Part shown: piece by piece, positions 6,574 to 20,808 of the stretch
Numbering within the stretch: position 1 is the first letter of the stretch
Layout: each line of letters opens with the position of its first letter
Assembly: GCA_964519615.1 (NCBI GenBank)
Contig: CAZFIM010000002.1
Span: 23,814 to 87,813, forward strand
Length of the DNA: 64,000 nucleotides
Origin: an uncultured Dehalococcoidales bacterium
GTDB lineage: Bacteria > Chloroflexota > Dehalococcoidia > GIF9 > UBA5629
Reading direction: 5' to 3'
The notes under the pieces: generated by a model
Told to the model about the DNA's origin: nothing
Databases searched by the model: none
Seen by the model: only the letters and a program-made list of their open reading frames with translations
Translations under genes and position numbers: made by a program

Positions 6574-7839
6574 ATGAAATCGATCGTAAAGCTGTCTAAA
6601 AGAATATATGCAGGCCGCAGGCTTCATGCTGTTTTGCTTGCCGCAGTTATGCTGGCAGCCGCAGCTTCGGCCGGGTGCGGCGGTGCGGACCTGAATGCAT
6701 CGACCGGTTCAGGCCAATTTTCTTTGCTGTCACCGGCGCCCGCCGAAGCTGCGGCAATTTCACTTTATGATGAGGACAGCGTCGTTGCTCTCTATGAGCG
6801 GTCTATCCCCGCTGTAGTGCAGATAGATATGGCAGGCAGTATTAAGCTTGATGCTCTTGAACGCTTAGACCTTCCCGTCCCGCAGCTACGGGGACAGGGT
6901 TCCGGCTTCATTATCGATGACGAAGGGCATATCCTGACCAATTATCATGTTGTGGACAATGCCGGCAAAGTGAAGTTCACGCTGCATGACGGGACCGAGT
7001 TGACCGCAAAGGTAGGGGGCACAGACCCCAATAACGACCTCGCTCTTATTTCGGTGGACCCGGAAAAACTCGGAGATATCCTGCCTTTGCCACTGGGTGA
7101 CTCGGATGCAATAAAGCCGGGACAAATGGCCATTGCACTGGGCTCTCCCTACGGGCTAGAGGGCTCCATAACGGTAGGCGTGATAAGCGGGTTGAAGCGT
7201 TCCATTACGGGTAAAACACAGCGGCCTATAGCGGATATGATTCAGACGGACGCGGCCATCAATCCCGGCAATTCAGGAGGACCTCTGCTGAACTCCTGCG
7301 GAGAGGTTATTGGCATCAATACCGCTATCGAGGCTTTTGCCAACGGGATCGGCTACGCTGTACCGATAAATACCGCAAGGTCGGTGCTGCCTGCTCTGCT
7401 CGATGGTGAGAAGGTGAGGAGCGCCTGGCTGGGCGTGAGCGGCACGGCGGTGACAGATGAGCTTAAAGAAAAGCTGGGCCTGACGGTAGATGAAGGCGTA
7501 TACGTTATAGGAGTGATACCCGACAGCCCCGCTCAGGAAGCGGGCATAAGGGAGGGAGGCAGAAACCAGCAGGGAGAGCCCACCTCGGGCGGCGACGTTA
7601 TCATTGAGGTAGACGGTGTTGCGGTGAGCGAAGTGGAAGACCTGATACGCTATTTCAACAGTAAAAGGCCGGGGGATGAAGTAAGCCTCCTCATAGTCAG
7701 AGATGGCCGGGAGATGACGGTGGGGGTGCAACTGGATGAATGGCCTGAGGATATTGCCGTTTCAGGGGATCGTATTCAACCGAAAGAGTTCGACTTTGGA
7801 CCTTTTCACTGGTTCTGGGACTGGGACAGCCGCCAGTAG
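6574..7839 (+). CDS. HtrA/DegP-family trypsin-like serine protease with PDZ domain
   Basis: Signal peptide, HVV catalytic-His region, D..ALI, GNSGGPLLN catalytic Ser motif and a C-terminal PDZ-like region. RBS AAAGGTGA. Confidence 0.9.
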   Translation: MKSIVKLSKRIYAGRRLHAVLLAAVMLAAAASAGCGGADLNASTGSGQFSLLSPAPAEAAAISLYDEDSVVALYERSIPAVVQIDMAGSIKLDALERLDLPVPQLRGQGSGFIIDDEGHILTNYHVVDNAGKVKFTLHDGTELTAKVGGTDPNNDLALISVDPEKLGDILPLPLGDSDAIKPGQMAIALGSPYGLEGSITVGVISGLKRSITGKTQRPIADMIQTDAAINPGNSGGPLLNSCGEVIGINTAIEAFANGIGYAVPINTARSVLPALLDGEKVRSAWLGVSGTAVTDELKEKLGLTVDEGVYVIGVIPDSPAQEAGIREGGRNQQGEPTSGGDVIIEVDGVAVSEVEDLIRYFNSKRPGDEVSLLIVRDGREMTVGVQLDEWPEDIAVSGDRIQPKEFDFGPFHWFWDWDSRQ

Positions 7840-7860: not shown

Positions 7861-7906
7861 ACATAAACATAGGAGGGGGCGTTCCGGCCCCCTCCTATGT
7901 TTATGT
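7861..7906 (+). terminator. intrinsic terminator-like hairpin with a perfect 20 bp stem after htrA
   Basis: ACATAAACATAGGAGGGGGC-gttccg-GCCCCCTCCTATGTTTATGT, read directly. The U-tract is weak. Confidence 0.55.
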
Positions 7907-7996: not shown

Positions 7997-8025
7997 TTGA
8001 CAAATATAACTTTACTTAGTAAAAT
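7997..8025 (+). promoter_or_regulatory. near-consensus sigma70 promoter for the MarR gene (TTGACA, 17 bp spacer, TAAAAT)
   Basis: TTGACA at 7997-8002 and TAAAAT at 8020-8025. ATG at 8044. Confidence 0.5.
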
Positions 8026-8043: not shown

Positions 8044-8523
8044 ATGTCTCCGGAGCGCCTCATGTCAAGCGGTCAATTTGATGAAATTTTCGAACTTCTT
8101 GTTCGCGTACTTCCCGTTGTACACAAGAAGATACACAGGGATATTTTCAAGGTCACAATCGAACAGGCCGGTGGGGACATGTCGCCGCATCATCTGATGA
8201 TACTTAAGATGCTCAGGGACGGTGGACTTTTCACCATGAGCGAGATCGGTGAGGAAATTGCCGTCTCCCAATCACAGATGACCCATTCAACGGATAAGTT
8301 GATAAAACTGGGTTTGATTACAAGAAAGGCAGGTACCGCCGATAGGAGAAAAATAAATATCAGGCTAACTGCGAGGGGAAGGGAATATCTGGAAAAGCTG
8401 GAGCCGGCAATGAAAAGAAGGGTAGAATCAAAGTTGTCCCTGTTATCTGATAATGATATGGTAAAGCTGGCAGTTTCGCTGAGGGATCTGGCCGGGATAT
8501 TCAGAAAATTGCACTGGGAGTAA
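8044..8523 (+). CDS. MarR-family transcriptional regulator
   Basis: Winged HTH: MILKMLRDGGLFTMSEIGEEIAVSQSQMTHSTDKLIKLGLITRKAGTADRRKINIRLTARG. Confidence 0.85.
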   Translation: MSPERLMSSGQFDEIFELLVRVLPVVHKKIHRDIFKVTIEQAGGDMSPHHLMILKMLRDGGLFTMSEIGEEIAVSQSQMTHSTDKLIKLGLITRKAGTADRRKINIRLTARGREYLEKLEPAMKRRVESKLSLLSDNDMVKLAVSLRDLAGIFRKLHWE

Positions 8524-8569
8524 TAAATAAACTGGCCCCCCATTGTTTAATAGGAATTTTTTTAAACTA

Positions 8570-8607
8570 TTATTGCAACTTATTGCAATAACAATAGGCT
8601 GCAATAA
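8570..8607. promoter_or_regulatory. three TTGCAA-type motifs, including the perfect 12 bp palindrome TTATTGCAATAA, upstream of the FmdE-like operon
   Basis: ttattgcaac at 8570-8579, ttattgcaataa at 8580-8591 and ctgcaataa at 8599-8607. The first two are spaced about 10 bp apart. Confidence 0.3.
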
Positions 8608-8624
8608 TTATAAAGGAAGGATTA

Positions 8625-9341
8625 ATGAGCACTGGTTATATTGCCAATCCGCGGCAGGAAATAACAGAGGCTGTAGACGCAGGAGATATATTGAAGCTGC
8701 TTAAGATAACAGGGACTTTACACGGCCATTTTTGCCCTGGAAGCGCGCTTGGTATCATGGCTACTATGTACGGGCTGCGTAAACTCAGAAGAGGGAGTAT
8801 GGCATCGGATGGTATGGAAGAGCTGATGGCTATAGTGGAAACGAATGCGTGTTTCACCGATGGTGTACAAATGGTATCCGGGTGTACTATCGGCAACAAC
8901 GGGCTGATATATCGTGATCTGGGCAAACACGCCGTGACTTTCATTATACGCGGGAAAGAAACTGGCGTACGTGTTCATGCACTGCCGTCTTTTCGTTCTT
9001 GTATAGAAAGGGAGGTTCCGGAATTCTTCTCCTTGGTATCCGAAGTCATTAAAAATAAGGACTGGAGCATAGCGGGGAAAAAGACCTATCGTGAAAAGGG
9101 ATGGGAAGCGGCATGTGCTCTGATAAGACACCCATTTGAGGAAATTCTGGCGGCAGAAACCTTCTTTCTTGCGCTGCCGGAATATGCACCGATTGTAAAA
9201 AGCGCCGTCTGCGCCGCCTGCGGTGAAGAGATTATGGTTACTAAAACCGTTGCTGAAAGTGAAAACCGCAGTCTCTGCTTCATGTGCAGCGGACATCGAT
9301 ACTTTCAGGTAGAGGGACAGGGAATAGTGTCCAAAGGCTGA
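8625..9341 (+). CDS. FmdE/FwdE-family protein with C-terminal zinc-ribbon
   Basis: HGHFCPGSALG motif typical of formylmethanofuran dehydrogenase subunit E-like proteins. C-terminal CAACGEE...CFMCSG, giving a CxxC...CxxC pattern. Confidence 0.8.
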   Translation: MSTGYIANPRQEITEAVDAGDILKLLKITGTLHGHFCPGSALGIMATMYGLRKLRRGSMASDGMEELMAIVETNACFTDGVQMVSGCTIGNNGLIYRDLGKHAVTFIIRGKETGVRVHALPSFRSCIEREVPEFFSLVSEVIKNKDWSIAGKKTYREKGWEAACALIRHPFEEILAAETFFLALPEYAPIVKSAVCAACGEEIMVTKTVAESENRSLCFMCSGHRYFQVEGQGIVSKG

Positions 9342-9395
9342 TATTGGATGCCGTTTCAGGGCGGTTCAGAATTCATTTGAGAACGGAGAAATATT

Positions 9396-9926
9396 ATGGA
9401 CACAGAGGGAAAATCAATTAGTCTGCGAACTGTGGGCATTGTAAGAAACGTATTAAAAGAGCCTTTTCTTAAGGCAGGAGACAGCGATATTGAAATGCAC
9501 GGCGAAATAGACGCTGTCAGGGAAGAAGTCCGCCAATCGTACCAGATGATTTCAGAAATTATTATTGACAAGGACATAATGAATATCCTCGCCGGAATAG
9601 AAGAGTATTCTCATCTTGTAGTGCTTTACTGGGCGCATCAAGTACCGGAAAAGAGCCGTCTATTAACGCAGGTACATCCAATGGGTAGAAAGGAGACTCC
9701 TATCTCCGGGATATTTTGCACGTGCAGTCCCGCTCGCCCCAATCCGGTGCTTATGTCCGTGGTCAGCCTGTACAAAAGGAAAGAAAACGTATTGCAGGTT
9801 CGCGGCTTGGATGCGGTTGACGGGAGCCCTGTTATAGATATCAAGCCATATGTCAAAGAGTTTTATCCCAAAGGCAAAGTTACAGTTCCTGAATGGATGA
9901 AACAGCTTTGCCTGGAGATGAGTTAA
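9396..9926 (+). CDS. TsaA/TrmO (YaeB)-like SAM-dependent methyltransferase-fold protein
   Basis: UPF0066-type pattern: IGIVRN, SHLVVLYWAHQ, PNPVLMSVVSL, VRGLDAVDGSPVIDIKPYV. Confidence 0.8.
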   Translation: MDTEGKSISLRTVGIVRNVLKEPFLKAGDSDIEMHGEIDAVREEVRQSYQMISEIIIDKDIMNILAGIEEYSHLVVLYWAHQVPEKSRLLTQVHPMGRKETPISGIFCTCSPARPNPVLMSVVSLYKRKENVLQVRGLDAVDGSPVIDIKPYVKEFYPKGKVTVPEWMKQLCLEMS

Positions 9927-10537
9927 TGAGTACCTTAGATAATGCCGAAGGATCCGGACACGGATTCAGACATGGATGCGGTAGAGGTATGGGCCCGAGC
10001 AGCTTCTGGATGCATGACCCTGAGGTTCTTTTCAATGCCATTAGACTAAAAAGAGGGGATACCTTTCTGGATTTGGGCTGTGGTTCGGGTGACTATGCGG
10101 TTTATGCAGCTCAAATCGTCGGAGAAGATGGGGTGGTATATGCACTGGACAGATGGCAGGAAATGATCGGTGACTTGCTGGCAAAAACGGATTCGCAGGG
10201 ACTGGAGAATATAATCGGAGTGATTGCCGATATTACCGCGCCGCTGCCGCTGCAAGAACACTGCATTGATGTGTGCATGATAGCTACAGTGCTTCATACA
10301 CTGGATACTGGTAGAGCGGTAAGGACGCTATTTACTGAAATCCGGCGCGTTCTAAAGCCGGACGGATATCTTGCCGTCATCGAGTGTAAAAAGGAAGAGA
10401 TGTCTTTTGGCCCGCCGATGCACATACGTTTATCGCCGGAGGAAATAGAGGAACTGGCAGTACCGTGCGGCTTTAAGAGGGCTGCTTTTACCGATCTTGG
10501 ATATAACTATCTGATTCAATATAGCGTCTTACGATAA
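9926..10537 (+). CDS. class I SAM-dependent methyltransferase
   Basis: Motif I LDLGCGSGDY and post-I/II motifs. Its ATG overlaps the upstream TAA as TAATG, indicating translational coupling. The longer ORF from 9893 was discarded. Confidence 0.8.
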   Translation: MSTLDNAEGSGHGFRHGCGRGMGPSSFWMHDPEVLFNAIRLKRGDTFLDLGCGSGDYAVYAAQIVGEDGVVYALDRWQEMIGDLLAKTDSQGLENIIGVIADITAPLPLQEHCIDVCMIATVLHTLDTGRAVRTLFTEIRRVLKPDGYLAVIECKKEEMSFGPPMHIRLSPEEIEELAVPCGFKRAAFTDLGYNYLIQYSVLR

Positions 10538-10714
10538 TAAACGATTATTGCAGAAACCGTGGAGTAAACAGGTAGAGAGAGCATTTCTTAAAGAGTACAA
10601 AAGTGGTCCTTGCAGCAGGAGATCGGGATAATACCTGAAGAGCATTACTTGCACCACGCGGGATAAAAGCACTTTCAATATTATGAAGTATAAAAAGGAT
10701 TATCGGTAGCGGAA

Positions 10715-10734
10715 ATGTTAGCTATTACTAACAT
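10715..10734. promoter_or_regulatory. candidate DtxR/IdeR-type iron-box palindrome (ATGTTAG-ctatta-CTAACAT) upstream of the DtxR-family gene
   Basis: 7 bp perfect inverted repeat with TTAGC/GCTAA-like half sites, 20 bp upstream of ATG 10755. It resembles the TTAGG..CCTAA iron-box architecture. Confidence 0.4.
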
Positions 10735-10754
10735 ATTAGAGAGGATAGAGCATA

Positions 10755-11264
10755 ATGATCACCAGCATCGTATTTACGAACAAGCCTACGCCCAGTCTTG
10801 AGGATTACCTTAAGACCATAGCTATCCTTAAGGAACAAGCCGGTAAGGTTACGGTTACGGCGTTGAGCGAATCGGTCGGCGTGAAGAAGCCGAGTGTTTC
10901 CTGGGCAATAGCACGGTTATCCGCCGCCGGATTGGTCCTGCATGAAAAATACCGTGATATTGAGCTTACTTCTGAAGGTGCACAGGTAGCTGCTGATATC
11001 TATAACCGCCATAAAGCGCTGCGCCGTTTTCTGGTTGATATTCTCAATGTCGATGCCAAGACGGCTGATATCGATGCCTGTCGAGTTGAGCATGTACTTA
11101 GCTTTTCCAGCTTTGTCAGGCTGGAAAAGCTTACGGATTATATATTGGGCTGCCCGAGGCATGATCATGTGTGGTCGAAAAGATTTAATCACTATGTTGA
11201 ACATGGTGAGAGGAATACAGGTCGATTAGCGGTGCCTCCCGGGGAAGATAAAGGAAAGCAATAA
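10755..11264 (+). CDS. DtxR/MntR-family metal-dependent transcriptional regulator
   Basis: N-terminal LEDYLKTIAILKEQAGKVTVTALSESVGVKKPSVSWAIARL followed by a dimerisation/metal-binding region. The DtxR C-terminal SH3-like domain is absent. Confidence 0.85.
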   Translation: MITSIVFTNKPTPSLEDYLKTIAILKEQAGKVTVTALSESVGVKKPSVSWAIARLSAAGLVLHEKYRDIELTSEGAQVAADIYNRHKALRRFLVDILNVDAKTADIDACRVEHVLSFSSFVRLEKLTDYILGCPRHDHVWSKRFNHYVEHGERNTGRLAVPPGEDKGKQ

Positions 11265-11445
11265 AAAAACCGGCCGTAATAGTTAGTCTTATTTGACTTA
11301 ATTATGCACGATATCCGGTTTTGTAATAAAGCAAAGCGATAGATGTGCATCTGCCGGGTTAAGCGGGCTAAATGCATATCTGACCACAGTGATTATTACA
11401 TGCTACAGCTAAAATAATGCCATATATATGCCTGAGGAGGTAAAA

Positions 11446-14400
11446 ATGTATGTCGCAGGAATAGATATAGGGTACTCTTCAACGAAAGTATCACTGATCA
11501 ACAGAAGCGGTGAAATAGAGTGCAGCAGCTATAGTATGCATAGAGGGCAGATCAAGCCATCGATTAAAGAGGCACTCCGTGAGCTGCTTGCAAAGTACAG
11601 CCTGTCAGAAATTTCACTGGGTGCGGTTACCGGCAGCGGCAGCGATTTACTGGTAAAACCGGGTGCTGTGGAATCTGTAAATGAGGTGCAGTCACTGGTG
11701 GAAGGCGCAATGCAGGTAAATAATACGGCTCATTCCATTATTGAAATCGGCGGTCAGAGCGCAAAATACATTACCGGGTTTAGCAAGCAGGATAAGTCAC
11801 ACATAAAAATGTCCATGAACGCCAACTGCTCCGCTGGCACCGGATCGTTCCTGGAAGAGCAGATGTCCCGGTTGAATATGGAGATTGGAAATTACTCCAC
11901 CTGTGCAAGCAAGGCCAAGTCAATACCCAGAATAGCCGGCCGGTGCAGTGTATTTGCGAAGACGGATATTATCCATCATCAGCAGGAAGGAACTCCGGTG
12001 GAGGATATTTTAATGGGCCTTGCTTATGCTCTGGTGAAAAGCTACAGAGGTTCGGTTATCAGAAAACTCTCAATGGTAAAACCAGTGCTGTTTATCGGCG
12101 GAGTAGCGCATAATGAGGCGATCGTTACTGCATTGAGGGATATACTTTGTCTGAATAATAAAGAGTTGATTATCCCGGAGTACTGCGGTAATGTTGCTTC
12201 CGTCGGGGCGGCAGTTATCGCTCTGCAAAACAATATCAGGATAGATATTCCCCTGTTGTTAGCCGGTCTGGACGAGGTATCGGAATTTCATGATGTTTCG
12301 CAGGATACAGGTGCGCTGCCTGCGCTGGCGGCTTTCGGTGATGGGGACAGCAGAAATAAGCATGTGTGTAAGGAAATAGTACCCGGGCAGCGTGGTCTGG
12401 CCTGCTATCTGGGGGTTGATGTCGGTTCCACCAGCACCAATCTGGTGCTGGCTGATGAGAAAGAAGAAATAGTCTCATATAAATATTTACGTACGCGGGG
12501 GAATCCTGCCCAAGCAGTTATAAACGGCTTAAAGGAACTGGAAGAAGAGCTTGATGATAAAGTTAATATACTCGCTGCAGGAGTAACCGGATCGGGCCGT
12601 TACATGATTGGTGCGCTTATTGGTGCCGACAGCATAAAGGATGAGATTACTGCCCAGGCCAGGGCTGCCGTAGCTGTGGACAGCAGCATAGATACGATAT
12701 TCGAGATAGGCGGACAGGATTCTAAATTTATTAGTCTTGCCAGTGGCATCGTTACCGATTTCCAGATGAATAAGGTATGCGCAGCCGGGACCGGATCTTT
12801 TATAGAAGAGCAGTCCCACAAGTTTAATATACCCATAGATAATTTCGGCGAACTGGCGCTCAGCAGCAGTAATCCTATTAACCTGGGTGAAAGATGTACG
12901 GTTTTTATCGAGACCAGTATTGCTGCCAATCTTTCCTCCGGTGCGGAATTGAAAGATATCGCCTCCGGACTCTGCTATTCCGTTGCCAGGAATTATCTCA
13001 ACAGGGTGGTCGGACAAAAAAAGATCGGCAATAAAATATCTTGTCAGGGAGGCATTGCCTACAATCAGGGTATAGTAAATGCCTTCAGGTCTCTTACCGG
13101 CAAGCCTGTTTCCGTTCTTCCTTTTTTCAGTGTCAGCGGGGCTTATGGTGCTGCCATTCTGGCTAAAGAAGAGATTGGTGACAAAAATACGCTATTTAAA
13201 GGATTCCATATAGAAAGTCCTCAGAAACAAGTAGATAAACGATTGGAAAAACCAAAATCAGGTAATACTGCAAAATTTAATAAATCGATTGAGGAACTGG
13301 TATTTGAGGGATATGATAGAGTAATCGATATCAGGAGAGCCACAGTGGGAATACCCCGTGCATTATTCGCTTACGGCATGTTTCCCATGTTCAATACTTT
13401 TTTCAAAGAACTGGGCTTCAATGTCTTACTTTCAGATCCTACCAGTGAAGAGACCATCAGATTGGGGCAGGAATACTCACTCGATGAGACCTGCTACCCG
13501 GTCAAGCTGATCAACGGCCATGTTGCCGAGCTGGTGCAAAAAAAGGTGGACTATATTTTCTTTCCCGACCTTTATACGGTAGACCACCCCGGTTCACATA
13601 CCCGCCAGAACTATGGCTGTGTCTATATGCAACTTGCTTTTAAAATGATTAATCAGGCCATGGAGCTCAAGATAAAAGGTATAGAATTACTGGCGCCGAC
13701 CATTGCCTTCAATCTTGGCAAAGAGTTCATGCTAAAAAGTTTCCTGGACCTGGGGCGGCAGATGGGTAAAGACCCGCAATTGACAACCCGGGCTCTACAA
13801 AAAAGCATGCAGGCTATTCTCGCTTTTGAAAACAGGATGGAGGAGAACGGGAAGATTGTGATGGCAAGTATCAAGCCTAGTGAAAAAGCGTTTGTTCTTA
13901 TCTCGAAGATATACGGTATTGCCGATCCCGTATTGAATATGGGTATACCGGGCAGGCTGATGGATATGGGCTATAAGGTGTTATCATTTTTTGATCTGCC
14001 CGAAGGTGATATATCGCAAGAGCACCCGAATATGTACTGGCCTTTTGGACAGCATATACTTGAGCCGGTCAAGCTCATCAAACAGCACCCTGACCTGTAT
14101 GCCATACTCCTTACTCATCACGGCTGCGGCCCGGACTCGGTAATGCTCCATTACTTCAAGGAACTTATGGGAGATAAACCCTATTTAAATATTGAGGTTG
14201 ATGAACACTCTTCTGATGTCGGCGTCATTACAAGGATAGAGGCATTTGTTAATAGCTTGAGAAAGCTTCCGGCAAAGAAAGCCGGCGGTACAGAAATTTA
14301 TGCCGGAAACAAGTGCAGCGAGAAGGTGCAAATTAGAAACAGGCTGGCAGGACTGAAAGATGGTGCGACATTGTATCTTCCACAAATGTATCCCTATTCT

Positions 14401-15441
14401 CATATATTTGAAAAAATCCTCATTGGTAAAGGAATAAATGCCAGAGTACTTCCCCAAACCGATATTGTCTCTATAGATATCGGTAAGAAATATACGCTCA
14501 CCAATGAATACTTATCCTTAACAGCACTCCTGGGTGATGCCCTGAAAGAACTTGGAAAAGCGGACAGGGATGAAGTAAGCACAGCTTTTCTTATACCGCA
14601 AACTGAGGGGGCTGAAGTATACGGGCAGTACAACCGGTTCCTGAGAGCGAAACTTGATGAAGCAGGGTACCGTGATACTGATATAATTGCACCTTTTGTA
14701 GAGGATGCCGTCTATCAAAACGGTGAAGATTTGAGGTCTATTTATCTGGGTCTGCTGGCCGGTGATATTGTAAGGATTGCCCCGGCCGGGCATAGGGATG
14801 GCTGTTTAAAAAGAATAACAGAGTCGATCACAAGGAAACAATTCGAGATAGATACTCTGGTAGAAATGGCAAGGGAGTTGAAAACTGTAATTAAATCTGC
14901 CGGATGCGAGGGAAAGAGGATCTTTGCTATCGGAGAACCTTTCATTCTATTCAATGATTTCTTGAACGGCTTTATCCTGAAAGATATCGAGGCAAATGGA
15001 CACAGGGTGATATATTGCCCGTTCAGTGAATACATGTGGCTGATGTGGCAGGACTATGTGGAGCAGAATGGAAAAGATAAATCAACGGATCTGCGCCGAA
15101 GTCTGAATGAATTCGAAAGATATATAAGTGCGGTATCCGGCTGTTTCTCAGAAGAGACTCCCTTTGAGAAGGATCTTAAGGAATTTGCTGCTGCTGCGGA
15201 TGACAAGATCAAATATTATGCCGGCTGGAGCGGCAGATACCGTGAGGCTAAATTACTCAGCGATTTGCCGAATATTCAAGGTTCTATCACTGTAGCCTCT
15301 ACGTATGAAAACACCGGAATAGCACTGGGAATATTGCATAGAGGTTTTGAGAATGGAATGCCGGTTCTCAATCTCACTTTCGATGGTAATAAAAATAGAA
15401 ATGATCAGTCAAAAATCGAGGCCTTTATTCATTATCTATAG
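11446..15441 (+). CDS. large fusion protein: two tandem BadF/BadG/BcrA/BcrD (HgdC-type) activase ATPase domains plus a 2-hydroxyacyl-CoA-dehydratase-like C-terminal domain
   Basis: Two copies of the acetate/sugar-kinase-fold activase pattern (GIDIGYSSTKV...EIGGQ...CAAGTGSFLEEQ and GVDVGSTSTNLV...EIGGQDSKFI...CAAGTGSFIEEQ). A roughly 750 aa C-terminal domain follows. RBS GAGGAGG sits 5 nt before ATG 11446. The ORF from 11428 was discarded. Confidence 0.85.
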   Translation: MYVAGIDIGYSSTKVSLINRSGEIECSSYSMHRGQIKPSIKEALRELLAKYSLSEISLGAVTGSGSDLLVKPGAVESVNEVQSLVEGAMQVNNTAHSIIEIGGQSAKYITGFSKQDKSHIKMSMNANCSAGTGSFLEEQMSRLNMEIGNYSTCASKAKSIPRIAGRCSVFAKTDIIHHQQEGTPVEDILMGLAYALVKSYRGSVIRKLSMVKPVLFIGGVAHNEAIVTALRDILCLNNKELIIPEYCGNVASVGAAVIALQNNIRIDIPLLLAGLDEVSEFHDVSQDTGALPALAAFGDGDSRNKHVCKEIVPGQRGLACYLGVDVGSTSTNLVLADEKEEIVSYKYLRTRGNPAQAVINGLKELEEELDDKVNILAAGVTGSGRYMIGALIGADSIKDEITAQARAAVAVDSSIDTIFEIGGQDSKFISLASGIVTDFQMNKVCAAGTGSFIEEQSHKFNIPIDNFGELALSSSNPINLGERCTVFIETSIAANLSSGAELKDIASGLCYSVARNYLNRVVGQKKIGNKISCQGGIAYNQGIVNAFRSLTGKPVSVLPFFSVSGAYGAAILAKEEIGDKNTLFKGFHIESPQKQVDKRLEKPKSGNTAKFNKSIEELVFEGYDRVIDIRRATVGIPRALFAYGMFPMFNTFFKELGFNVLLSDPTSEETIRLGQEYSLDETCYPVKLINGHVAELVQKKVDYIFFPDLYTVDHPGSHTRQNYGCVYMQLAFKMINQAMELKIKGIELLAPTIAFNLGKEFMLKSFLDLGRQMGKDPQLTTRALQKSMQAILAFENRMEENGKIVMASIKPSEKAFVLISKIYGIADPVLNMGIPGRLMDMGYKVLSFFDLPEGDISQEHPNMYWPFGQHILEPVKLIKQHPDLYAILLTHHGCGPDSVMLHYFKELMGDKPYLNIEVDEHSSDVGVITRIEAFVNSLRKLPAKKAGGTEIYAGNKCSEKVQIRNRLAGLKDGATLYLPQMYPYSHIFEKILIGKGINARVLPQTDIVSIDIGKKYTLTNEYLSLTALLGDALKELGKADRDEVSTAFLIPQTEGAEVYGQYNRFLRAKLDEAGYRDTDIIAPFVEDAVYQNGEDLRSIYLGLLAGDIVRIAPAGHRDGCLKRITESITRKQFEIDTLVEMARELKTVIKSAGCEGKRIFAIGEPFILFNDFLNGFILKDIEANGHRVIYCPFSEYMWLMWQDYVEQNGKDKSTDLRRSLNEFERYISAVSGCFSEETPFEKDLKEFAAAADDKIKYYAGWSGRYREAKLLSDLPNIQGSITVASTYENTGIALGILHRGFENGMPVLNLTFDGNKNRNDQSKIEAFIHYL

Positions 15442-15584
15442 ATCAGAAATGCAGGCTACATTTTTGTGATACTCCGCCCGCAAGCTGTATAATACGAAAA
15501 CATACCCCGATACCTATCCTGTAACACAAGGTGGCAAAACCGCTCTTATGCGCGATGGGTACAGTTTATAAAGGAGGGCTTATA

Positions 15585-16376
15585 ATGTCAGACCGCGCTT
15601 CCGATAAAATAAGGGGGCTGCTGCTGCTGGTCGACCGCATGAATATGAAAGGCCTGCGGCACTGGGGCGGTGAGCTTATGAGGAGAAAAATACCCGCTGT
15701 TATATCGTTAAACCCGGCCACTCTGGAGAGCGATTGTGAGATGGTCAAGCAGCTTGCTGCTGACGGGTTTGAGATTGCCGGCGCCTACAATGAAGGCCCT
15801 TTCTGGAATGAAAGCTACGAGTTTCAGCGTACGATAATATCCCGCACAATGGAGAAGATTTCTGCCTGCATCGGCAAGCCGGGCCGCGTCTTTCACGCCA
15901 AGTATTTCAGTTATAACGAGGACACGCTCAAGATAGCGGACGAGCTCGGCATCGGCTTCATCCTGGCGCGGGGGAGCGCTGGTGTGAGGGGGGTGGTGTA
16001 TAAACCGCAGGAATACGGCTGCCGTATTATCTCGGTAAGCAATGTGCCTTCTAAAGGAAAGGGCACCGGCTCGCTGTGCGATGAATCGCTTCGCTGCAGG
16101 ACTGAGCCCCCTGCTACGCTGCGGGAGCTGCTATTCAGTTTATCGGTGGACAGGATAGTGCTGGTGGCGCAAACACATGTCAGCGGTGTAAAGCTGCACT
16201 GGTGGAACGTGTACCGGGACTTTTTTGACGCGGACATCGTCTCCTGGCAGAGTCTGGACCAATTCTGCGCAAATCCGCAGGTGATGCCGAACTTGCAGAT
16301 ACCCTATAATACCGCAATGGACTATATGGAGCCCAAACCGCTGATACCTCTGGAGCAGGAGGAGGACCTGGTTTAG
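15585..16376 (+). CDS. hypothetical protein (cytoplasmic, no recognisable family)
   Basis: 263 aa ORF with a strong RBS AAGGAGGG 7 nt upstream of ATG 15585. It lies directly downstream of the activase-fusion gene. Confidence 0.55.
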   Translation: MSDRASDKIRGLLLLVDRMNMKGLRHWGGELMRRKIPAVISLNPATLESDCEMVKQLAADGFEIAGAYNEGPFWNESYEFQRTIISRTMEKISACIGKPGRVFHAKYFSYNEDTLKIADELGIGFILARGSAGVRGVVYKPQEYGCRIISVSNVPSKGKGTGSLCDESLRCRTEPPATLRELLFSLSVDRIVLVAQTHVSGVKLHWWNVYRDFFDADIVSWQSLDQFCANPQVMPNLQIPYNTAMDYMEPKPLIPLEQEEDLV

Positions 16377-16386
16377 ACGTCCCGCT

Positions 16387-17469
16387 TTACGGCTTGCATT
16401 CTACACTGATGCGGGTACCCTGACCGGGGCCACTCTGGATATGTAGCGTGCCTATAGAGCCCGCTCTCTCTCTGATGCCTATGAGCCCCAGCTTGCTCTT
16501 GGATGCGAACACGTTTATCTTCTCCGGCACTTCAAATCCCACGCCGTTATCTGAAATCTCTAATTTAACATTCCCCGCATCGTGGAATTCGAGGGTGACC
16601 AGCACTTCCGTGGCCTGGGAATGCAGCTTGATATTGTTCAAGGATTCTTCCACAATGCGTATGAGGGTGATATCCATTCCCTTAGGAATCTGGACTTCCT
16701 GCCCTTTTATCACCATTTTGGCATTCATGTGAGTTTCATTCTTCAGCCTGTCTACCAGCCATCTTAAAGCAGCCACGAAACCAACATCATCGAGCAGGCC
16801 GGGCCGTAGATCGATCGCCAGTTGCCTCAGCTTATTGGAAACCTGGATAACGCTGTCTTTTACGCCCATTGCCTCGTTCTGCAATTTGGCCTTGGTCAGG
16901 TTATTCTTGTTGACGGCGATATTCTGCACCTTGCTGGCTATCAGCAGGAGCGAATGAAGCGTATCGTCATGAATCTCCTGGGCAAGACGTTTGCGCTCAA
17001 CCTCCTGCGCCCGGAAAATTTGCGCAATATTGGCCTGCCGTTCATTCTCCCTGTCCATAAGCAGCCCGCGCTCTTTTTTGCGCCAGTTGAGCTCTATGGT
17101 GACGATGGCAATCAAAAGCAAAGGAATACTGAGATAAAACACGTTTTCCAGAACCATTATATTCAATGATCTGTAATAGAACGCCATGGGCATGACCACA
17201 AGCAATGAAATAGCCCAGATAACCAGCGTACCGTACCACCATAAGAATACTGCGGATACAATGAGAGGAATGGTAAAGAGCATACCGTGAAAATGGCTGC
17301 GGAACTCCACTATTACCAGCCGTCTTATCCAATCAGGCAGGTCATGCACAAAGACGGTAGCACCGTAAAAGAGAGCCAACGCAATGACAACGATCAGGAT
17401 TGTTAAAAAGAGCGGGTTGGAGAAAAGTTTTCTTGTTTGTGCCGGAGATATGTTGCTTAATGTATGCAT
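16387..17469 (-). CDS. sensor histidine kinase, NarL/LuxR-partner type (HisKA_3 + HATPase), membrane-embedded sensor
   Basis: N-terminal TM helices with almost no periplasmic loop. H-box ERKRLAQEIHDDTLHSLL and a C-terminal ATPase with G-boxes (DNGVGF, GLIGIRERA). Confidence 0.85.
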   Translation of the reverse strand: MHTLSNISPAQTRKLFSNPLFLTILIVVIALALFYGATVFVHDLPDWIRRLVIVEFRSHFHGMLFTIPLIVSAVFLWWYGTLVIWAISLLVVMPMAFYYRSLNIMVLENVFYLSIPLLLIAIVTIELNWRKKERGLLMDRENERQANIAQIFRAQEVERKRLAQEIHDDTLHSLLLIASKVQNIAVNKNNLTKAKLQNEAMGVKDSVIQVSNKLRQLAIDLRPGLLDDVGFVAALRWLVDRLKNETHMNAKMVIKGQEVQIPKGMDITLIRIVEESLNNIKLHSQATEVLVTLEFHDAGNVKLEISDNGVGFEVPEKINVFASKSKLGLIGIRERAGSIGTLHIQSGPGQGTRISVECKP

Positions 17470-17478
17470 CTGTGCTGA

Positions 17479-18189
17479 TTACTCTATATCATCGGAGGTA
17501 ATTAACCGTGCACGTAGCCCTGTAATGACCGCTTCAGTACGTGAACTGACATTCAATTTGGCAAATATTTCAACCATGTAACTTTTTACCGTATGTAAAC
17601 TCAGGTTCATTTCATGCGAGATATCCTTGTTGCTCAGGCCTCTTGCCGCAAGCCTGAGGATCTCGAGTTCTCTGGCAGTAAGCGTGTCCTTGGCATCCAG
17701 AACGAGCGGCTTTAACGGATACTGCAGGGCATGCTTGAGCACCTGTGTGAATATCTCTGTGACCATCACTATTTCGCCTTTGCTGATGGCCCGTATCGCC
17801 GTAATTATTTCATCTTCATATGATACGCTTTTGGTAAGATATCCCGCCGCTCCCGCATCTAGTATGCTCAAGATGTGCTCGATATCGTCATAAATGGTCA
17901 GTACCAGTATAGCCATACCCGGGCACTTAGCTTTGATTTGTTGTGTAGCCTGCAGTCCGTTCAAGACGGGCATGCCGATATCCATTATCACCATATCCGG
18001 CATCAATTCGCAGGCCAATTTCACCGCCTCTGCGCCGTTGCCTGCTTCTGCGATTACCGTAAAATCAGCCTGTTTTTCCAGTGTCTCCCGGACCGCTTTG
18101 CGAAACAGAGGATGATCATCGGCCAGCAAGATAGTTATCGCTTTATCGGCGGGACTGCGTGTAGATTTCTTACTCTTCCAACCCATCAT
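17479..18189 (-). CDS. response regulator, NarL/LuxR family
   Basis: Receiver domain (ILLADDHPLFR...MDIGMP) plus a C-terminal LuxR HTH (LTARELEILRLAARGLSNKDISHEMNLSLHTVKSYMVEIFAKL). Confidence 0.9.
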   Translation of the reverse strand: MMGWKSKKSTRSPADKAITILLADDHPLFRKAVRETLEKQADFTVIAEAGNGAEAVKLACELMPDMVIMDIGMPVLNGLQATQQIKAKCPGMAILVLTIYDDIEHILSILDAGAAGYLTKSVSYEDEIITAIRAISKGEIVMVTEIFTQVLKHALQYPLKPLVLDAKDTLTARELEILRLAARGLSNKDISHEMNLSLHTVKSYMVEIFAKLNVSSRTEAVITGLRARLITSDDIE

Positions 18190-18432
18190 GATAAATCATT
18201 GTAGCACAGACGAATTTTACACATAAAAGATACGAAAGTATACATTATATCCAACTTTTTATCGTTTACAGAGAGCGGTAAATGCATGTTAAATACTACT
18301 GCAGCCAGATATTTAAGGCCAGGCAGGGCGGCGCATGTGTATGGGTATTGCAGGAACCCACTCTGTGATTTTTATTGTTTTTGTATTGTGAGAAGGTCCT
18401 GCATTGCCGATAACGATCCCGGAGGAATTGCG

Positions 18433-20808
18433 ATGAACATTGAAGCGAGGAAACAAAGAATAAGCAAATTAAGGGAGAAGGTCACAGGCACGCCGGCAAT
18501 TTGCATGGAAAGGCTGTGTTTGATGACGGAGTCTTATAAACAGACTGAGGGTGAGCCTGCTGTCATCAGAAGGGCAAAGGCGCTGCAAAAGATATTGAGC
18601 GGGATGTACATCAATATCGATGACGGAGAGTTGATTGTGGGAAAAACCACCAGCAAAGATCGCGGCAGTACGGTAACTCCGGAGATCAGACAGGAGTGGT
18701 TTTTGCAGCAAATAGAAAGCCTTTCGACCAGAGTATGGGACAGGTTCTCGCCGCTTTCGGAAGATGAAAAGAAAAAGGCAAGGAAATACATGCCCTACTG
18801 GGAAGGCAAATCCGTATGCGACCTGTTTTATGGTATGGCGCCGGAGGAATTCATCAGGCTGGACCACAAGGTCATAACCGGCGGGCTTATCATGCACAAT
18901 TTCAATGTTGGGCATATGGTTTTCGATGCCCAAAGAATTCTAAACATGGGATTGAGCGGCATCAAGAAAGAGGCTGAAGCAGAGCTGTCCAAGTTGAATC
19001 CGGGAATCTATGAGGATTTCGAGAAGTCGCAGTTTTTAAAAGCTGCCGTTATCGCTCTTGATGCTGTAGCGGGCCTTGCCCAAAGATATGCAGAACTTGC
19101 TGAAACCATGGCAAAAAACGAGAGCGGCAGCAAGAGAAGAGCTGAGCTGAAAAAGATCGCACAAACGTGCAGGAGGGTTCCTGCGGGTGCGGCCCGAACG
19201 TTTTTTGAAGCGCTGCAGTCGATCTGGTTTGTACATATAGGGATTGTCATGGAAGGGTGGGGCACCGGCATCGGTATCGGCCGGGCGGATCAGTATTTGT
19301 ATCCCTTCTATCAGAAGGATATGGAAGAGGGGAGAATTACAAAAGATGACGTTTTGGAGCTGTTTGAACTGCTCTATATAAAAATGAATTCATCGGTTAT
19401 TCTGCTGGCAGAGGATGCTGCCAGGATTGCCGGCGGCTTTCCCATATGGCCCAATATGACGCTGGGCGGCGTGACTAAGGATGGAGAAGATGCCGTAAAT
19501 GAGCTTTCTTACCTTTTCCTTGAAGCTGAAGCGGAAGTGCGGCTGCAGCAGGAGGAATTCATTATCAGGGTCAATAAAAAAACTCCGGATGCCTTTTTGC
19601 ATAAAGCATGTGAAGTCGCCAAATTGATGAGGGGAAAATTCAAATTCGTCAGCGATGATACGGCAATACAGGCGCTGCTCGATTGCGGGAAACCCCTCCC
19701 GTACGCGCGTGACTATATTGTGACAGGTTGTTTTAATCTCACCGTCCCCGGAGTATCCGCAGACCTATTCTCAGGCATGTTCAACCTGCCGATGGCGCTG
19801 GAGCTGGCTTTGAATAACGGCGTTTCACGTTTGAGCAAAGAACGGCTGGGGCCGCAAACAGGGGATGCTCGTAAATTCAGTTCCTATGACGATGTATGGA
19901 ATGCCTTTACCAAACAAGTAGCAAGCGCTGTCCCCCTGGTTGTGTTTTATATTAACGCCGATAAGAAGATTTTTGCGGATAACTACCCGTACCCGCTTGA
20001 GTCAGCGCTTTTCAGAGATTGCATCAAGCACGGCAAGAGCATTTTGCACGGAGGTACCGCTCCCTATCTCACCTGCGGAATCGGCCTTGTGGGCGCAGCT
20101 AATGTCGGTGATTCTCTGGCGGCGATAAAAAAGGTTGTATTCGAAGACAGACAGATTACCATGGAGGAATTGGTAGATGCCCTCGATAAAAATTTTGAAG
20201 GCTGTGAGAGAGTTCTCAGCCTGCTCAAGAATGCCCCAAAGTTCGGCAATGACGAGCGCTATGTTGATTCCATTGTCAACGATGTACTCATGTATACCAC
20301 CGAGGAGATAAGAAAATATAGAACCTATTTAGGGACATTGAACACCACCGCGGGTGGAGCGGTCACTTCCAATATTCCCTTAGGATATATAGTAGGGGCG
20401 CTGCCGGACGGAAGAAAGGCCGGGGAATCGCTCTCTGAAGGAGGAATATCCCCTTATCAGGGAAGAAACGTAAGCGGGCCGACGGCTACCATGAGGTCAG
20501 TATCGCAGTTGGACCTGGCACGGTTGAGCAACGGTTCCGTATTGAATATGAGATTGGACCCCGAATCACTGAAAGATGAAGCAAAGATAAGCAAACTGGT
20601 ATCCATGATCAGGACATTCTGTGAAACGGGGGGATACCTGGTTCAATTCAATATTGTCAGTACCGAAACATTAAGGGACGCGCAGGTGCATCCGGAAAAG
20701 TATAGAGACCTTCTAGTCAGGGTAGCCACTTACAGTGCTTATTTTGTGGAACTGAGCCCTGAATTGCAGAACGATATCATTGCCCGGACGGAATTTCAGG
20801 CTCTGTGA
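18433..20808 (+). CDS. glycyl-radical-enzyme (PFL2/glycerol-dehydratase-like) family homologue with Thr at the canonical radical-Gly position
   Basis: About 791 aa. The C-terminal radical-domain fingerprint FNIVSTETLRDAQVHPEKYRDLLVRVATYSAYFVELSPELQNDIIARTEF aligns with RVxGY but has ACT (Thr) where Gly is expected. The Cys loop reads TGCFNL (20849-region gene follows) rather than GCVE. RBS GGAGGA precedes ATG 18433. Confidence 0.85.
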   Translation: MNIEARKQRISKLREKVTGTPAICMERLCLMTESYKQTEGEPAVIRRAKALQKILSGMYINIDDGELIVGKTTSKDRGSTVTPEIRQEWFLQQIESLSTRVWDRFSPLSEDEKKKARKYMPYWEGKSVCDLFYGMAPEEFIRLDHKVITGGLIMHNFNVGHMVFDAQRILNMGLSGIKKEAEAELSKLNPGIYEDFEKSQFLKAAVIALDAVAGLAQRYAELAETMAKNESGSKRRAELKKIAQTCRRVPAGAARTFFEALQSIWFVHIGIVMEGWGTGIGIGRADQYLYPFYQKDMEEGRITKDDVLELFELLYIKMNSSVILLAEDAARIAGGFPIWPNMTLGGVTKDGEDAVNELSYLFLEAEAEVRLQQEEFIIRVNKKTPDAFLHKACEVAKLMRGKFKFVSDDTAIQALLDCGKPLPYARDYIVTGCFNLTVPGVSADLFSGMFNLPMALELALNNGVSRLSKERLGPQTGDARKFSSYDDVWNAFTKQVASAVPLVVFYINADKKIFADNYPYPLESALFRDCIKHGKSILHGGTAPYLTCGIGLVGAANVGDSLAAIKKVVFEDRQITMEELVDALDKNFEGCERVLSLLKNAPKFGNDERYVDSIVNDVLMYTTEEIRKYRTYLGTLNTTAGGAVTSNIPLGYIVGALPDGRKAGESLSEGGISPYQGRNVSGPTATMRSVSQLDLARLSNGSVLNMRLDPESLKDEAKISKLVSMIRTFCETGGYLVQFNIVSTETLRDAQVHPEKYRDLLVRVATYSAYFVELSPELQNDIIARTEFQAL

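Follow-up and report, generated by a model that had tools for sequence, protein, structure and literature searches.

A stretch of 64,000 nucleotides from an uncultured Dehalococcoidales bacterium (contig CAZFIM010000002.1, positions 23,814–87,813 of the forward strand; 'the window' denotes this whole 64-kb stretch) was analysed around a gene encoding a protein of 1331 amino acids (aa), in which two HgdC-type ATPase modules are fused to a catalytic part made of DUF2229 and an HGD-D-like region. The fusion protein lies in a monophyletic clade of its own, outside the Ger-like group and apart from the Listeria monocytogenes pls orthologue, and the evidence suggests a previously undescribed function in the handling of trace metals, as opposed to lipids. 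Our preferred reading, to which we assign a probability of roughly 50%, is that the gene and its neighbours constitute a metal-regulated reductase module that makes or dismantles a small metal chelate under trace-metal limitation.

A homologue search of 5.8 billion proteins identified at least 120 full-length sequences at 55–73% identity, from Desulfobacterales, Clostridia, Vallitalea, Halanaerobiales and methanogens, with the methanogen members of the clade (Methanospirillum, Methanolobus, Methanofollis, Methanolacinia and Methanomicrobium) at 55–59%. Identity to the fusion protein was stepped in a genome scan, with groups at 52–62%, at 38–42% (a small group from gut Actinobacteria, Treponema and Oscillospiraceae) and at 32–35% (a large group from Deltaproteobacteria, Planctomycetota, Bacteroidales and others); identities were at least 47% inside the clade and at most 44% to anything outside it. 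In a neighbour-joining analysis of 90 full-length homologues, which did not include the experimentally tested PlsA/Ger sequences of C. perfringens, E. faecalis, T. maritima and D. alkenivorans, the 21 sequences of the window clade were monophyletic in 30 of 30 bootstraps, apart from 62 Ger-like sequences. NCBIfam contains no PlsA/Ger model, and the tested PlsA/Ger sequences were represented by the Listeria monocytogenes pls orthologue (L096, 5977–10431; compared loci are given L numbers), which was reported to be active anaerobically (PMC9702350) and shared 25–28% identity with members of the clade. An insert of about 35 aa with a CxxCxxxC...C pattern, located between the second ATPase module and DUF2229, was present in 62 of 62 distant-group sequences and in the Listeria protein, and was found in none of the 21 window-clade sequences and none of the seven from the 38–42% group; this insert is a criterion observed in the present analysis, not a published one. 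Archaeal membrane lipids are isoprenoid ethers without ester-linked acyl chains. The clade's presence in methanogens thus places it in hosts that do not offer the ester-linked glycerolipid on which the lipid enzymes act.

The architecture of two activases, DUF2229 and an HGD-D-like part has been published for PlsA/PlsR and Ger (PMC13159169, PMC12838417), and the domain order of the fusion protein is the one described there for PlsA/PlsR and Ger (PMC13159169). The statement in a preliminary description of this DNA that no substrate is known for such fusions is therefore outdated (see also PMC9702350). Ger homologues have been reported in Methanosarcinales and Methanomicrobiales (PMC13159169); these most likely belong to the window clade, in which case they are not evidence for bacterial-type ether lipids in archaea. 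Neither the clade nor its context was described in the literature retrieved by searches on DUF2229, FmdE with TrmO, activases with iron, Fur or Zur, and the organometallic SAO system.

The sister group at 38–42% identity (L007–L012 and L095) had a constant context of its own, with a cupin gene directly downstream and a NitT/TauT-type ABC transporter. One of its copies, on a Paraclostridium bifermentans plasmid (L095; NZ_CP094935.1, 79221–99054), lies beside hcp, hemerythrins, a ferredoxin, NifU and DUF1858, a set of neighbours that usually goes with nitrosative stress or Fe-S repair. The cupin-plus-ABC context also occurs in Clostridium aceticum (L083), a member of the window clade.

The start codon of the fusion gene, ATG 11446, is preceded by GAGGAGG 7 nt upstream, and homologues share the start methionine. 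The predicted parts of the protein are as follows, all encoded on the + strand.

aa 3–262, nt 11452–12231: HgdC-type ATPase module 1 (BcrAD_BadFG)
aa 321–575, nt 12406–13170: HgdC-type ATPase module 2 (BcrAD_BadFG)
Between ATPase module 2 and DUF2229: Cys-free linker
aa 633–847, nt 13342–13986: DUF2229 (198.6 bits, E 1.3e-58)
aa 876–938, nt 14071–14259: HGD-D-like stretch (PF06050, 27.5 bits, below the cut-off of 28.4)
Following the HGD-D-like stretch, to the C-terminus: second Rossmann-like half

The preliminary description had recognised two complete HgdC/BadF-type modules in tandem, joined to a dehydratase-like C-terminal domain, and profile searches bore this out. PF01869 (221.6 bits, cut-off 31.5, E 1.8e-65) and TIGR00241 (281.6 bits, cut-off 125.4) each matched in two stretches, and the DUF2229 match was clear, with the HGD-D match just under its threshold. 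C127 and C166 of HgdC are the ligands bridging its [4Fe-4S] cluster. C128 and C167 of the fusion protein aligned residue by residue with these two positions (1HUX) and C445 and C484 were found in the equivalent motifs of ATPase module 2, so that candidate cysteine ligands were present in both activase modules; all four were invariant in the alignment of 90 homologues. In the C-terminal module C683, C725, C894, H692 and H921 were likewise invariant in 90 of 90 homologues. A sequence-profile search of PDB sequences with this module retrieved no solved relative. An AlphaFold2 model of residues 625–1331 (predicted local distance difference test, pLDDT, 82.9; predicted template-modelling score, pTM, 0.85) was compared with known structures by Foldseek, and the top three matches were all chains of the double-cubane cluster protein DCCP (best 6ENO and 7YYL_D; E 1e-4 to 5e-4, probability 1.0), over about 418 aligned columns with TM-scores of 0.29 and 0.45. 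The ATPase partner of DCCP (7YYL_E) also matched the ATPase modules of the fusion protein. Given this DCCP-like C-terminal fold together with DCCP-R-like ATPases, the fusion protein is predicted, from its sequence and the model, to be a single-chain version of an ATP-driven low-potential reductase within the superfamily of benzoyl-CoA reductases (BCR), 2-hydroxyacyl-CoA dehydratases and double-cubane proteins. The catalytic part has no more than three conserved cysteines, which suggests that it may hold a single open-site [4Fe-4S] cluster like that of 2-hydroxyacyl-CoA dehydratases, and not an [8Fe-9S] cluster.

As read from the gene order, the functional unit is a run of six genes, marR, fmdE-like, trmO-like, an S-adenosylmethionine (SAM) methyltransferase gene, dtxR and the fusion gene (8044–15441). 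The predicted features of this region are listed below.

7861–7906: 20-bp terminator hairpin closing the upstream gene; the cluster begins after it
7997–8025, + strand: cluster promoter TTGACA-17-TAAAAT, 11 of 12 promoter positions matched
8009–8025: candidate MarR operator ACTTTA-N5-TAAAAT, overlapping the -10 box of the cluster promoter
8044–8523, + strand: MarR-family regulator, 159 aa, gene 1 of the cluster (Pfam MarR/MarR_2)
8569–8608: repeated TTATTGCAA/TTGCAATAA half-sites 3' of marR and 5' of the fmdE-like gene; they include the 12-bp palindrome TTATTGCAATAA
8625–9341, + strand: FmdE-domain protein, 238 aa (PF02663, E 4e-32; PDB 2GVI, E 3e-8)
9396–9926, + strand: TrmO_N-only (UPF0066) SAM-binding beta-barrel protein, 176 aa (PF01980, E 7e-27)
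9893–10537, + strand: class I SAM methyltransferase, 214 aa (Methyltransf_31/11/25)
10715–10734: perfect 7-6-7 palindrome ATGTTAG-CTATTA-CTAACAT, candidate DtxR-family operator, 20 nt before the dtxR ATG
10755–11264, + strand: DtxR/MntR-family regulator, 169 aa (PF01325, PF02742)
11279–11300: possible degenerate second site ATAGTTAG-tcttat-TTGACTTA, weak, upstream of the fusion gene; left arm as in L001, right arm 4 of 8
11446–15441, + strand: fusion protein, 1331 aa (tandem BcrAD_BadFG, DUF2229, HGD-D-like)

The same six genes in the same order were found in L001, a 1.5-Mb metagenome contig of a relative whose fusion protein is 73% identical, and the gene 3' of the L001 cluster is unrelated. 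The unit of the preliminary description, consisting of dtxR, the fusion gene and the following 263-aa gene, was thus wrongly bounded, and four conserved upstream partners had been missed. The MarR proteins of the window and L001 are syntenic and 66% identical, and MarR-family genes adjoin the fusion gene also in L094 and L098. Upstream of marR, L001 has TTGACA followed after 6 nt by ACTTTA-N5-TAAAGT (6976–7004), as in the window; the inverted repeat ACTTTA-N5-TAAA(A/G)T (window 8009–8025, L001 6988–7004), begins 6 nt past TTGACA, shares bases with the -10 box and probably serves as the operator through which MarR regulates its own gene. The 101 bp separating marR from the fmdE-like gene hold three copies of the TTATTGCAA/TTGCAATAA element, which has no counterpart in L001, where the two genes are 19 bp apart. 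The FmdE-like protein combines an FHGHxC Zn motif with a C-terminal CxxC...CxxC finger. The TrmO-like protein matched TIGR00104 with 102 bits and PDB 2NV4 with E 8e-19, and the 3' end of its gene overlaps the methyltransferase gene by 34 nt; the methyltransferase contains conserved DvC..TVLH and IECkK...FGPP motifs.

The partner genes were specific to the clade. Among 23 clade loci (the window, seven from genomes, six from metagenomes and nine from exact look-ups), the SAM methyltransferase was the most constant partner (17 of 23), followed by the FmdE-like (10 of 23) and TrmO-like (9 of 23) proteins, whereas none of the three occurred in any of 74 non-clade loci. Gene fusions also joined these partners and a regulator: L092 (10001–14608) has the methyltransferase attached C-terminally to the fusion protein, L086 (2698–3813) has TrmO_N joined to FmdE, and L084 (266–4723) has FUR joined to the N-terminus of the large protein. 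A fused TrmO-FmdE architecture was noted earlier (PMC2954224). No genes for CoA-transferases or CoA-ligases were present in the clade neighbourhoods, and none for lipid synthesis in any of the 23. Assignment of the methyltransferase as ArsM was considered and rejected, its NCBIfam matches being below threshold and the ArsM cysteine at the SNCV motif being replaced. In methanogen loci a DUF364/DUF4213 gene ('putative heavy-metal chelation') adjoins the fusion gene and a DGC-domain protein is encoded directly downstream (L003, 4569–5315 and 14038–14415; L093, 14110–14370), and a PadR regulator precedes the trmO, fmdE and methyltransferase genes.

The cluster's second regulator was confirmed as a member of the DtxR/MntR family, with both Fe_dep_repress (PF01325, 51.4 bits, cut-off 26) and Fe_dep_repr_C (PF02742, 57.6 bits, cut-off 27) above threshold. 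It is short, lacks an SH3/FeoA domain and ends in a Cys/His-rich C-terminal tail. Its closest solved relative is B. subtilis MntR (E 6e-16, 33% identity), and it scored below the NCBIfam equivalog cut-offs for both MntR (76 against 138 bits) and DtxR (60 against 290 bits). Its ligand pattern is a hybrid: D17, H86, C109, E112 and H113 are located at MntR D8, H77, E99, E102 and H103, with C109 also at the position of DtxR Cys102 and K20 at MntR E11.

The iron box of known DtxR-type regulators is 19 bp long, of the TTAGGTTAGCCTAACCTAA type, with arms 1 bp apart. The palindrome upstream of dtxR shares the DtxR half-site pentamers GTTAG/CTAAC, its arms being 6 bp apart, so that the description of it as an iron-box-like 7-6-7 palindrome was exact as to the palindrome but does not extend to an iron box beyond the half-sites. 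The window contains eight perfect 7-N6-7 palindromes, compared with 3.5 in shuffled sequence; the pattern of this palindrome with up to two mismatches was expected 0.23 times, and no second GTTAG-N6-CTAAC site with at most one mismatch was present within the 64-kb window. In L001, the one close orthologous cluster available for comparison, the core GTTAG-N6-CTAAC is conserved: it occurs exactly once, as ATAGTTAG-N6-CTAACTAT (9961–9982), in the 55 bp that separate dtxR from the fusion gene, against an expectation of 0.02 per locus. Both core sites lie within 60 bp of dtxR, 5' of it in the window and 3' in L001. A metal-loaded dimer of the DtxR-family protein would bind GTTAG-N6-CTAAC and repress. 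CAATTAG-N6-CTAATTG palindromes in L085 and L090 were considered as further operators; they are located within a repeated element of about 100 bp resembling a miniature inverted-repeat transposable element and were dropped as operator evidence. This operator mimic carries a 10-6-10 palindrome, AACCAATTAG-N6-CTAATTGGTT, in tandem and inverted copies (L090, 3260–3330 and 19950–20140; L085, about 6943).

Across the clade, neighbouring genes and predicted sites showed recurrent and independent links to metal and B12 sensors and to chelate transporters. The preliminary description's synteny of dtxR with the fusion gene held in L001; over the whole set dtxR adjoins the clade gene in five of the 23 loci (the window, L001, L003 of Methanospirillum, L084 and L097 of Desulfoscipio), in three gene orders. 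A fur gene adjoins it in L002, L084, L091 (Vallitalea) and L097, and Fur boxes matching at least 16 of 19 positions were found at -243 in L083 (Clostridium aceticum) and at -77 in L084, compared with a background of 3 per 1.29 Mb. Altogether, Fur genes or strong Fur boxes characterise five loci, which add to or overlap those with dtxR. In Desulfonema magnum (L082), a cobalamin riboswitch is directly upstream of an MFS-fmdE-fusion-methyltransferase operon and a second one precedes two TonB-dependent receptors; three further riboswitches were found in L035 (Desulfobacterium), with no hit in the window and 12 additional bacterial loci. The riboswitches predicted in these two Desulfobacteraceae genomes scored 87–113 bits and have the following positions.

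L082: 5008–5191 and 12754–12937
L035: 20312–20494, 23148–23332 and 23656–23883

In three of three methanogen loci the fusion gene is situated amid Peripla_BP_2/FecCD/ABC importers, with FeoA, DUF364 and DGC genes. Other clade loci have ZnuABC with SufCD, or ZIP, and TonB receptors are also found nearby; exporters of the ABC, MFS, MATE, RND and MMPL types are adjacent in most clade loci. FmdE-family genes have been reported mostly to adjoin metal-ion transporters (PMC2954224). Since the clade recurs beside DtxR and Fur genes, Fur boxes, B12 riboswitches and chelate transporters, and the palindrome core beside the L001 dtxR, the earlier suggestion of metal-responsive control of an Fe-S, ATP-dependent enzyme is supported; it also withstood the refuting conditions attached to it, in a comparison with one close orthologous cluster. 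The Firmicutes clade loci also have in common an inverted repeat, GTATC-N4-GATAC, where the divergent Crp-family regulator probably binds, followed by a Fur-box-like AAATGA(A/T)AATGA upstream of fur or of the fusion gene (L091, 9385–9460; L002, 9350–9430; L097, 9410–9490; L083, 7710–7795).

By analogy with the enzyme family, the proposed mechanism would proceed as follows. The tandem HgdC-type modules would form an internal pseudo-dimer holding one [4Fe-4S] cluster between C128/C167 and C445/C484, and ATP hydrolysis would push a very low-potential electron into the [4Fe-4S] cluster held by C683, C725 and C894 of the DUF2229/HGD-D module, where a carbonyl-bearing substrate could be reduced or dehydrated. 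The methyltransferase may methylate the substrate, plausibly converting a carboxylate to a methyl ester, which would supply the ester carbonyl needed by this enzyme family, analogous to the CoA thioester or glycerol ester of its relatives. On comparison of the loci, expression appears tied to trace-metal or cofactor status, through the DtxR-family repressor here, Fur genes and Fur boxes in Firmicutes and cobalamin riboswitches in Desulfobacteraceae; in anoxic, sulfidic habitats where trace metal is scarce the module would act with adjacent exporters and chelate importers. Candidates for the chelate are a metallophore or a corrinoid-type compound. A wider proposal, which we put forward only tentatively, is that the clade may supply the central catalyst of a pathway, so far unrecognised, by which strictly anaerobic bacteria and methanogens alike acquire trace metals. 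In it the ATP-driven, ultra-low-potential reductase and the methyltransferase, assisted by the Zn-thiolate FmdE-like protein and the TrmO-like protein, would build or dismantle a metal chelate, either a metallophore adapted to sulfidic habitats or a corrinoid-type compound, under DtxR, Fur or B12-riboswitch control.

Several points weigh against a metal-regulated chelate module. The neighbourhoods are heterogeneous, and in the window no transporter adjoins the cluster. With dtxR in only five of 23 loci, and with these DtxR proteins 32–39% identical except in L001, the association is recurrent, not universal; riboswitches were found in only two bacterial loci. Judged by the window alone, the palindrome does not stand out statistically; the two orthologous clusters carry it at different positions, and a promoter scan found no convincing sigma-70 promoter overlapping it. 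It is also counter-intuitive that an Fe-S enzyme rich in clusters should be induced when iron is short. Detoxification would be an equally good fit for the regulators of the MarR, PadR, AraC and Crp types and for the pumps of multidrug type.

Such a function, in which a toxic metal(loid) or xenobiotic is reduced, methylated and exported and the metal regulators sense damage rather than scarcity, would suit the regulators just named and the MFS, MATE, RND and ABC exporters common nearby, as well as the ArsP-type permease, AhpD-like and CCG genes among the neighbours. The best, sub-threshold NCBIfam matches of the methyltransferase were arsenite-methyltransferase-like, the Paraclostridium copy of the sister group lies beside hcp, hemerythrins and NifU, and a double-cubane protein with its activase has been tied by genome context to organometallic loci (10.1101/2022.07.06.499078). 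We consider it unlikely, however, as the methyltransferase does not retain the ArsM cysteine of the SNCV motif, ArsR/MerR-type sensors are absent, and a module induced by scarcity is indicated by the importers and TonB receptors as well as by the Fur boxes and B12 riboswitches. A corrinoid or cobalt module, which would process an imported corrinoid by ATP-driven cobalt reduction followed by SAM-dependent methylation or remodelling, or would substitute for a B12-dependent step under B12 scarcity, is also improbable. It would account for the riboswitches 5' of the operon and of the TonB receptors in Desulfonema magnum and L035, for the BtuFCD-like Peripla_BP_2/FecCD/ABC genes flanking the gene in three methanogens and for the tetrapyrrole methylase genes near the L082 copy; the carriers, being methanogens, acetogens and completely oxidising sulfate reducers, are heavy corrinoid users, and ATP-driven reductive corrinoid activation by ASKHA-type ATPases is known (PMC7317905). 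However, the window and 12 other bacterial loci have no such riboswitch, Fur boxes, ZnuABC and ZIP indicate Fe or Zn elsewhere, FecCD-type transporters are not B12-specific, and a corrinoid-binding domain is absent.

An ether-lipid function, with the protein acting as an orthologue of PlsA/PlsR or Ger that converts the sn-1 ester of glycerolipids to a vinyl or alkyl ether, its neighbours being incidental, appears very unlikely. The architecture of two activases, DUF2229 and an HGD-D-like part and the conserved cysteines are the same and Ger homologues have been reported in Methanosarcinales and Methanomicrobiales (PMC13159169), but the protein belongs to a separate monophyletic clade (in the tree lacking the tested PlsA/Ger), has only 25–28% identity to the Listeria pls orthologue and is without the 4-Cys linker insert of that protein and of the 62 distant-group sequences. 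Members of the clade occur in methanogens, in whose membrane lipids ester-linked acyl chains are absent. Its partners (methyltransferase, FmdE-like and TrmO-like) and their fusions are clade-specific, and lipid-synthesis genes are absent from the 23 neighbourhoods. The regulation in the window might also be coincidental, the palindrome being an inverted repeat that arose by chance or a binding site for some other protein, with dtxR controlling unlinked metal-uptake genes. The eight perfect 7-N6-7 palindromes where 3.5 were expected, the spacing unlike known DtxR/IdeR boxes, the site lying 5' of dtxR in the window and 3' in L001, and the reliance of the comparison on one orthologous cluster would all fit this explanation, which we nevertheless regard as quite unlikely: the exact 10-base core is unique in L001 (0.02 expected) in the 55-bp spacer adjoining dtxR, its left arm ATAGTTAG recurs 5' of the fusion gene in the window, and several lineages of the clade have acquired metalloregulators independently of one another.

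Proteins with two HgdC-type ATPases fused to DUF2229 are very common in anaerobes, and their sole assigned functions are in plasmalogen and alkyl-ether lipid synthesis. The distinct partners, the lack of a Cys-rich linker, the carriage by methanogens and the metal and B12 wiring point to another substrate for this radical-enzyme family, and so to a possible third chemistry among two-activase/DUF2229 proteins. For studies of the lipid divide and of biomarkers this advises caution in counting each Ger/PlsA homologue, archaeal ones above all, as evidence for ether lipids; if the clade does belong to a metal acquisition pathway, the archaeal 'Ger homologues' would have a function other than lipid synthesis. 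Acquisition of Fe, Co, Ni and Zn by anaerobes in sulfidic habitats is poorly understood. The FmdE-like and TrmO_N-only families, hitherto without a biochemical role, here gain a first defined and testable context, and the clade is represented in the cultured Desulfonema magnum, Clostridium aceticum, Vallitalea pronyensis, Methanospirillum stamsii and Methanolacinia petrolearia.

Two further features were identified between the cluster and the next genes of the window.

15464–15493, + strand: separate promoter-like site TTGTGA-18-TATAAT for the 263-aa gene (promoter scan)
15585–16376, + strand: 263-aa CE4-like (polysaccharide-deacetylase-like) protein (PF01522, 26.1 bits, cut-off 23.1)

This open reading frame encodes 263 aa from ATG 15585 and up to 281 aa at most, the PF01522 match covering residues 49–141 of the 281-aa form. 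A gene of this length does follow the fusion gene, as had been described, but the accompanying statement that its product belongs to no recognisable family did not stand, given the match above the cut-off and 216 homologues at 51–64% identity, none of them named beyond hypothetical or deacetylase and most carrying a precomputed PF01522 annotation. The sources named for this conserved CE4-like family of about 265 aa were Deltaproteobacteria, Syntrophaceae and metagenome-assembled genomes of Chloroflexota. Co-conservation with dtxR and the fusion gene, which the preliminary description had proposed as a check, was not borne out, as none of 22 related loci has a counterpart; since it is absent from these loci and has its own promoter-like site, the gene is regarded as a neighbour and not as a component of the cluster. 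Further downstream (16387–20808) a minus-strand HisKA_3 histidine kinase and a LuxR-type response regulator face a gene for a pyruvate formate-lyase-like glycyl radical enzyme (840 aa, 18286–20808), a locus separate from the fusion cluster.

Compared with known systems, the regulator of the window shares the winged-helix and the dimerisation and metal-binding domains of DtxR/IdeR and MntR, with D17, H86, E112 and H113 as in MntR; unlike these it falls below all equivalog cut-offs, has no SH3-like domain and has Lys at the position of MntR E11. Its candidate operator has GTTAG/CTAAC half-sites as in DtxR/IdeR, but 6 bp apart and not overlapping as a 19-bp box. The ATPase modules resemble those of HgdAB with HgdC and of the class I benzoyl-CoA reductases BcrABCD and MbdONQP (1HUX- and 9GAI-like, E 1e-32), with which the fusion protein has in common the cysteine positions of HgdC C127/C166, a weak HGD-D match and the presumed ATP-coupled injection of electrons. 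It differs from them in that its ATPases are in tandem and fused to the catalytic module, and in that this module is beyond the reach of PDB profile detection. DCCP and DCCP-R of Carboxydothermus hydrogenoformans (6ENO, 7YYL) provide the best structural match of the C-terminal module (E 1e-4) and also match the ATPase modules (DCCP-R, E 4e-20). DCCP is likewise an ATP-driven low-potential reductase with an unassigned natural substrate, but its components are separate polypeptides where the window protein is a single chain, and it binds an [8Fe-9S] cluster through six cysteines where three Cys and two His are invariant in the C-terminal module; the two share 13–14% identity, and the TM-scores of 0.29 and 0.45 are low.

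In architecture the closest systems are PlsA/PlsR of Clostridium perfringens, encoded by a single gene in Enterococcus and Listeria, and Ger of Thermotoga maritima and Desulfatibacillum alkenivorans, which, as the window protein, consist of two BcrAD_BadFG modules, DUF2229 and an HGD-D-like part. They have the cluster cysteines in common with it, are strictly anaerobic and are presumed, as it is, to form a ketyl radical at a carbonyl. The window protein differs from them in sequence (25–28% identity to Listeria pls, 32–35% to the Ger-like group) and in lacking the CxxCxxxC...C insert, and its clade differs in having no lipid genes nearby, in its presence in methanogens, and in partner genes and metal-linked regulation of its own.

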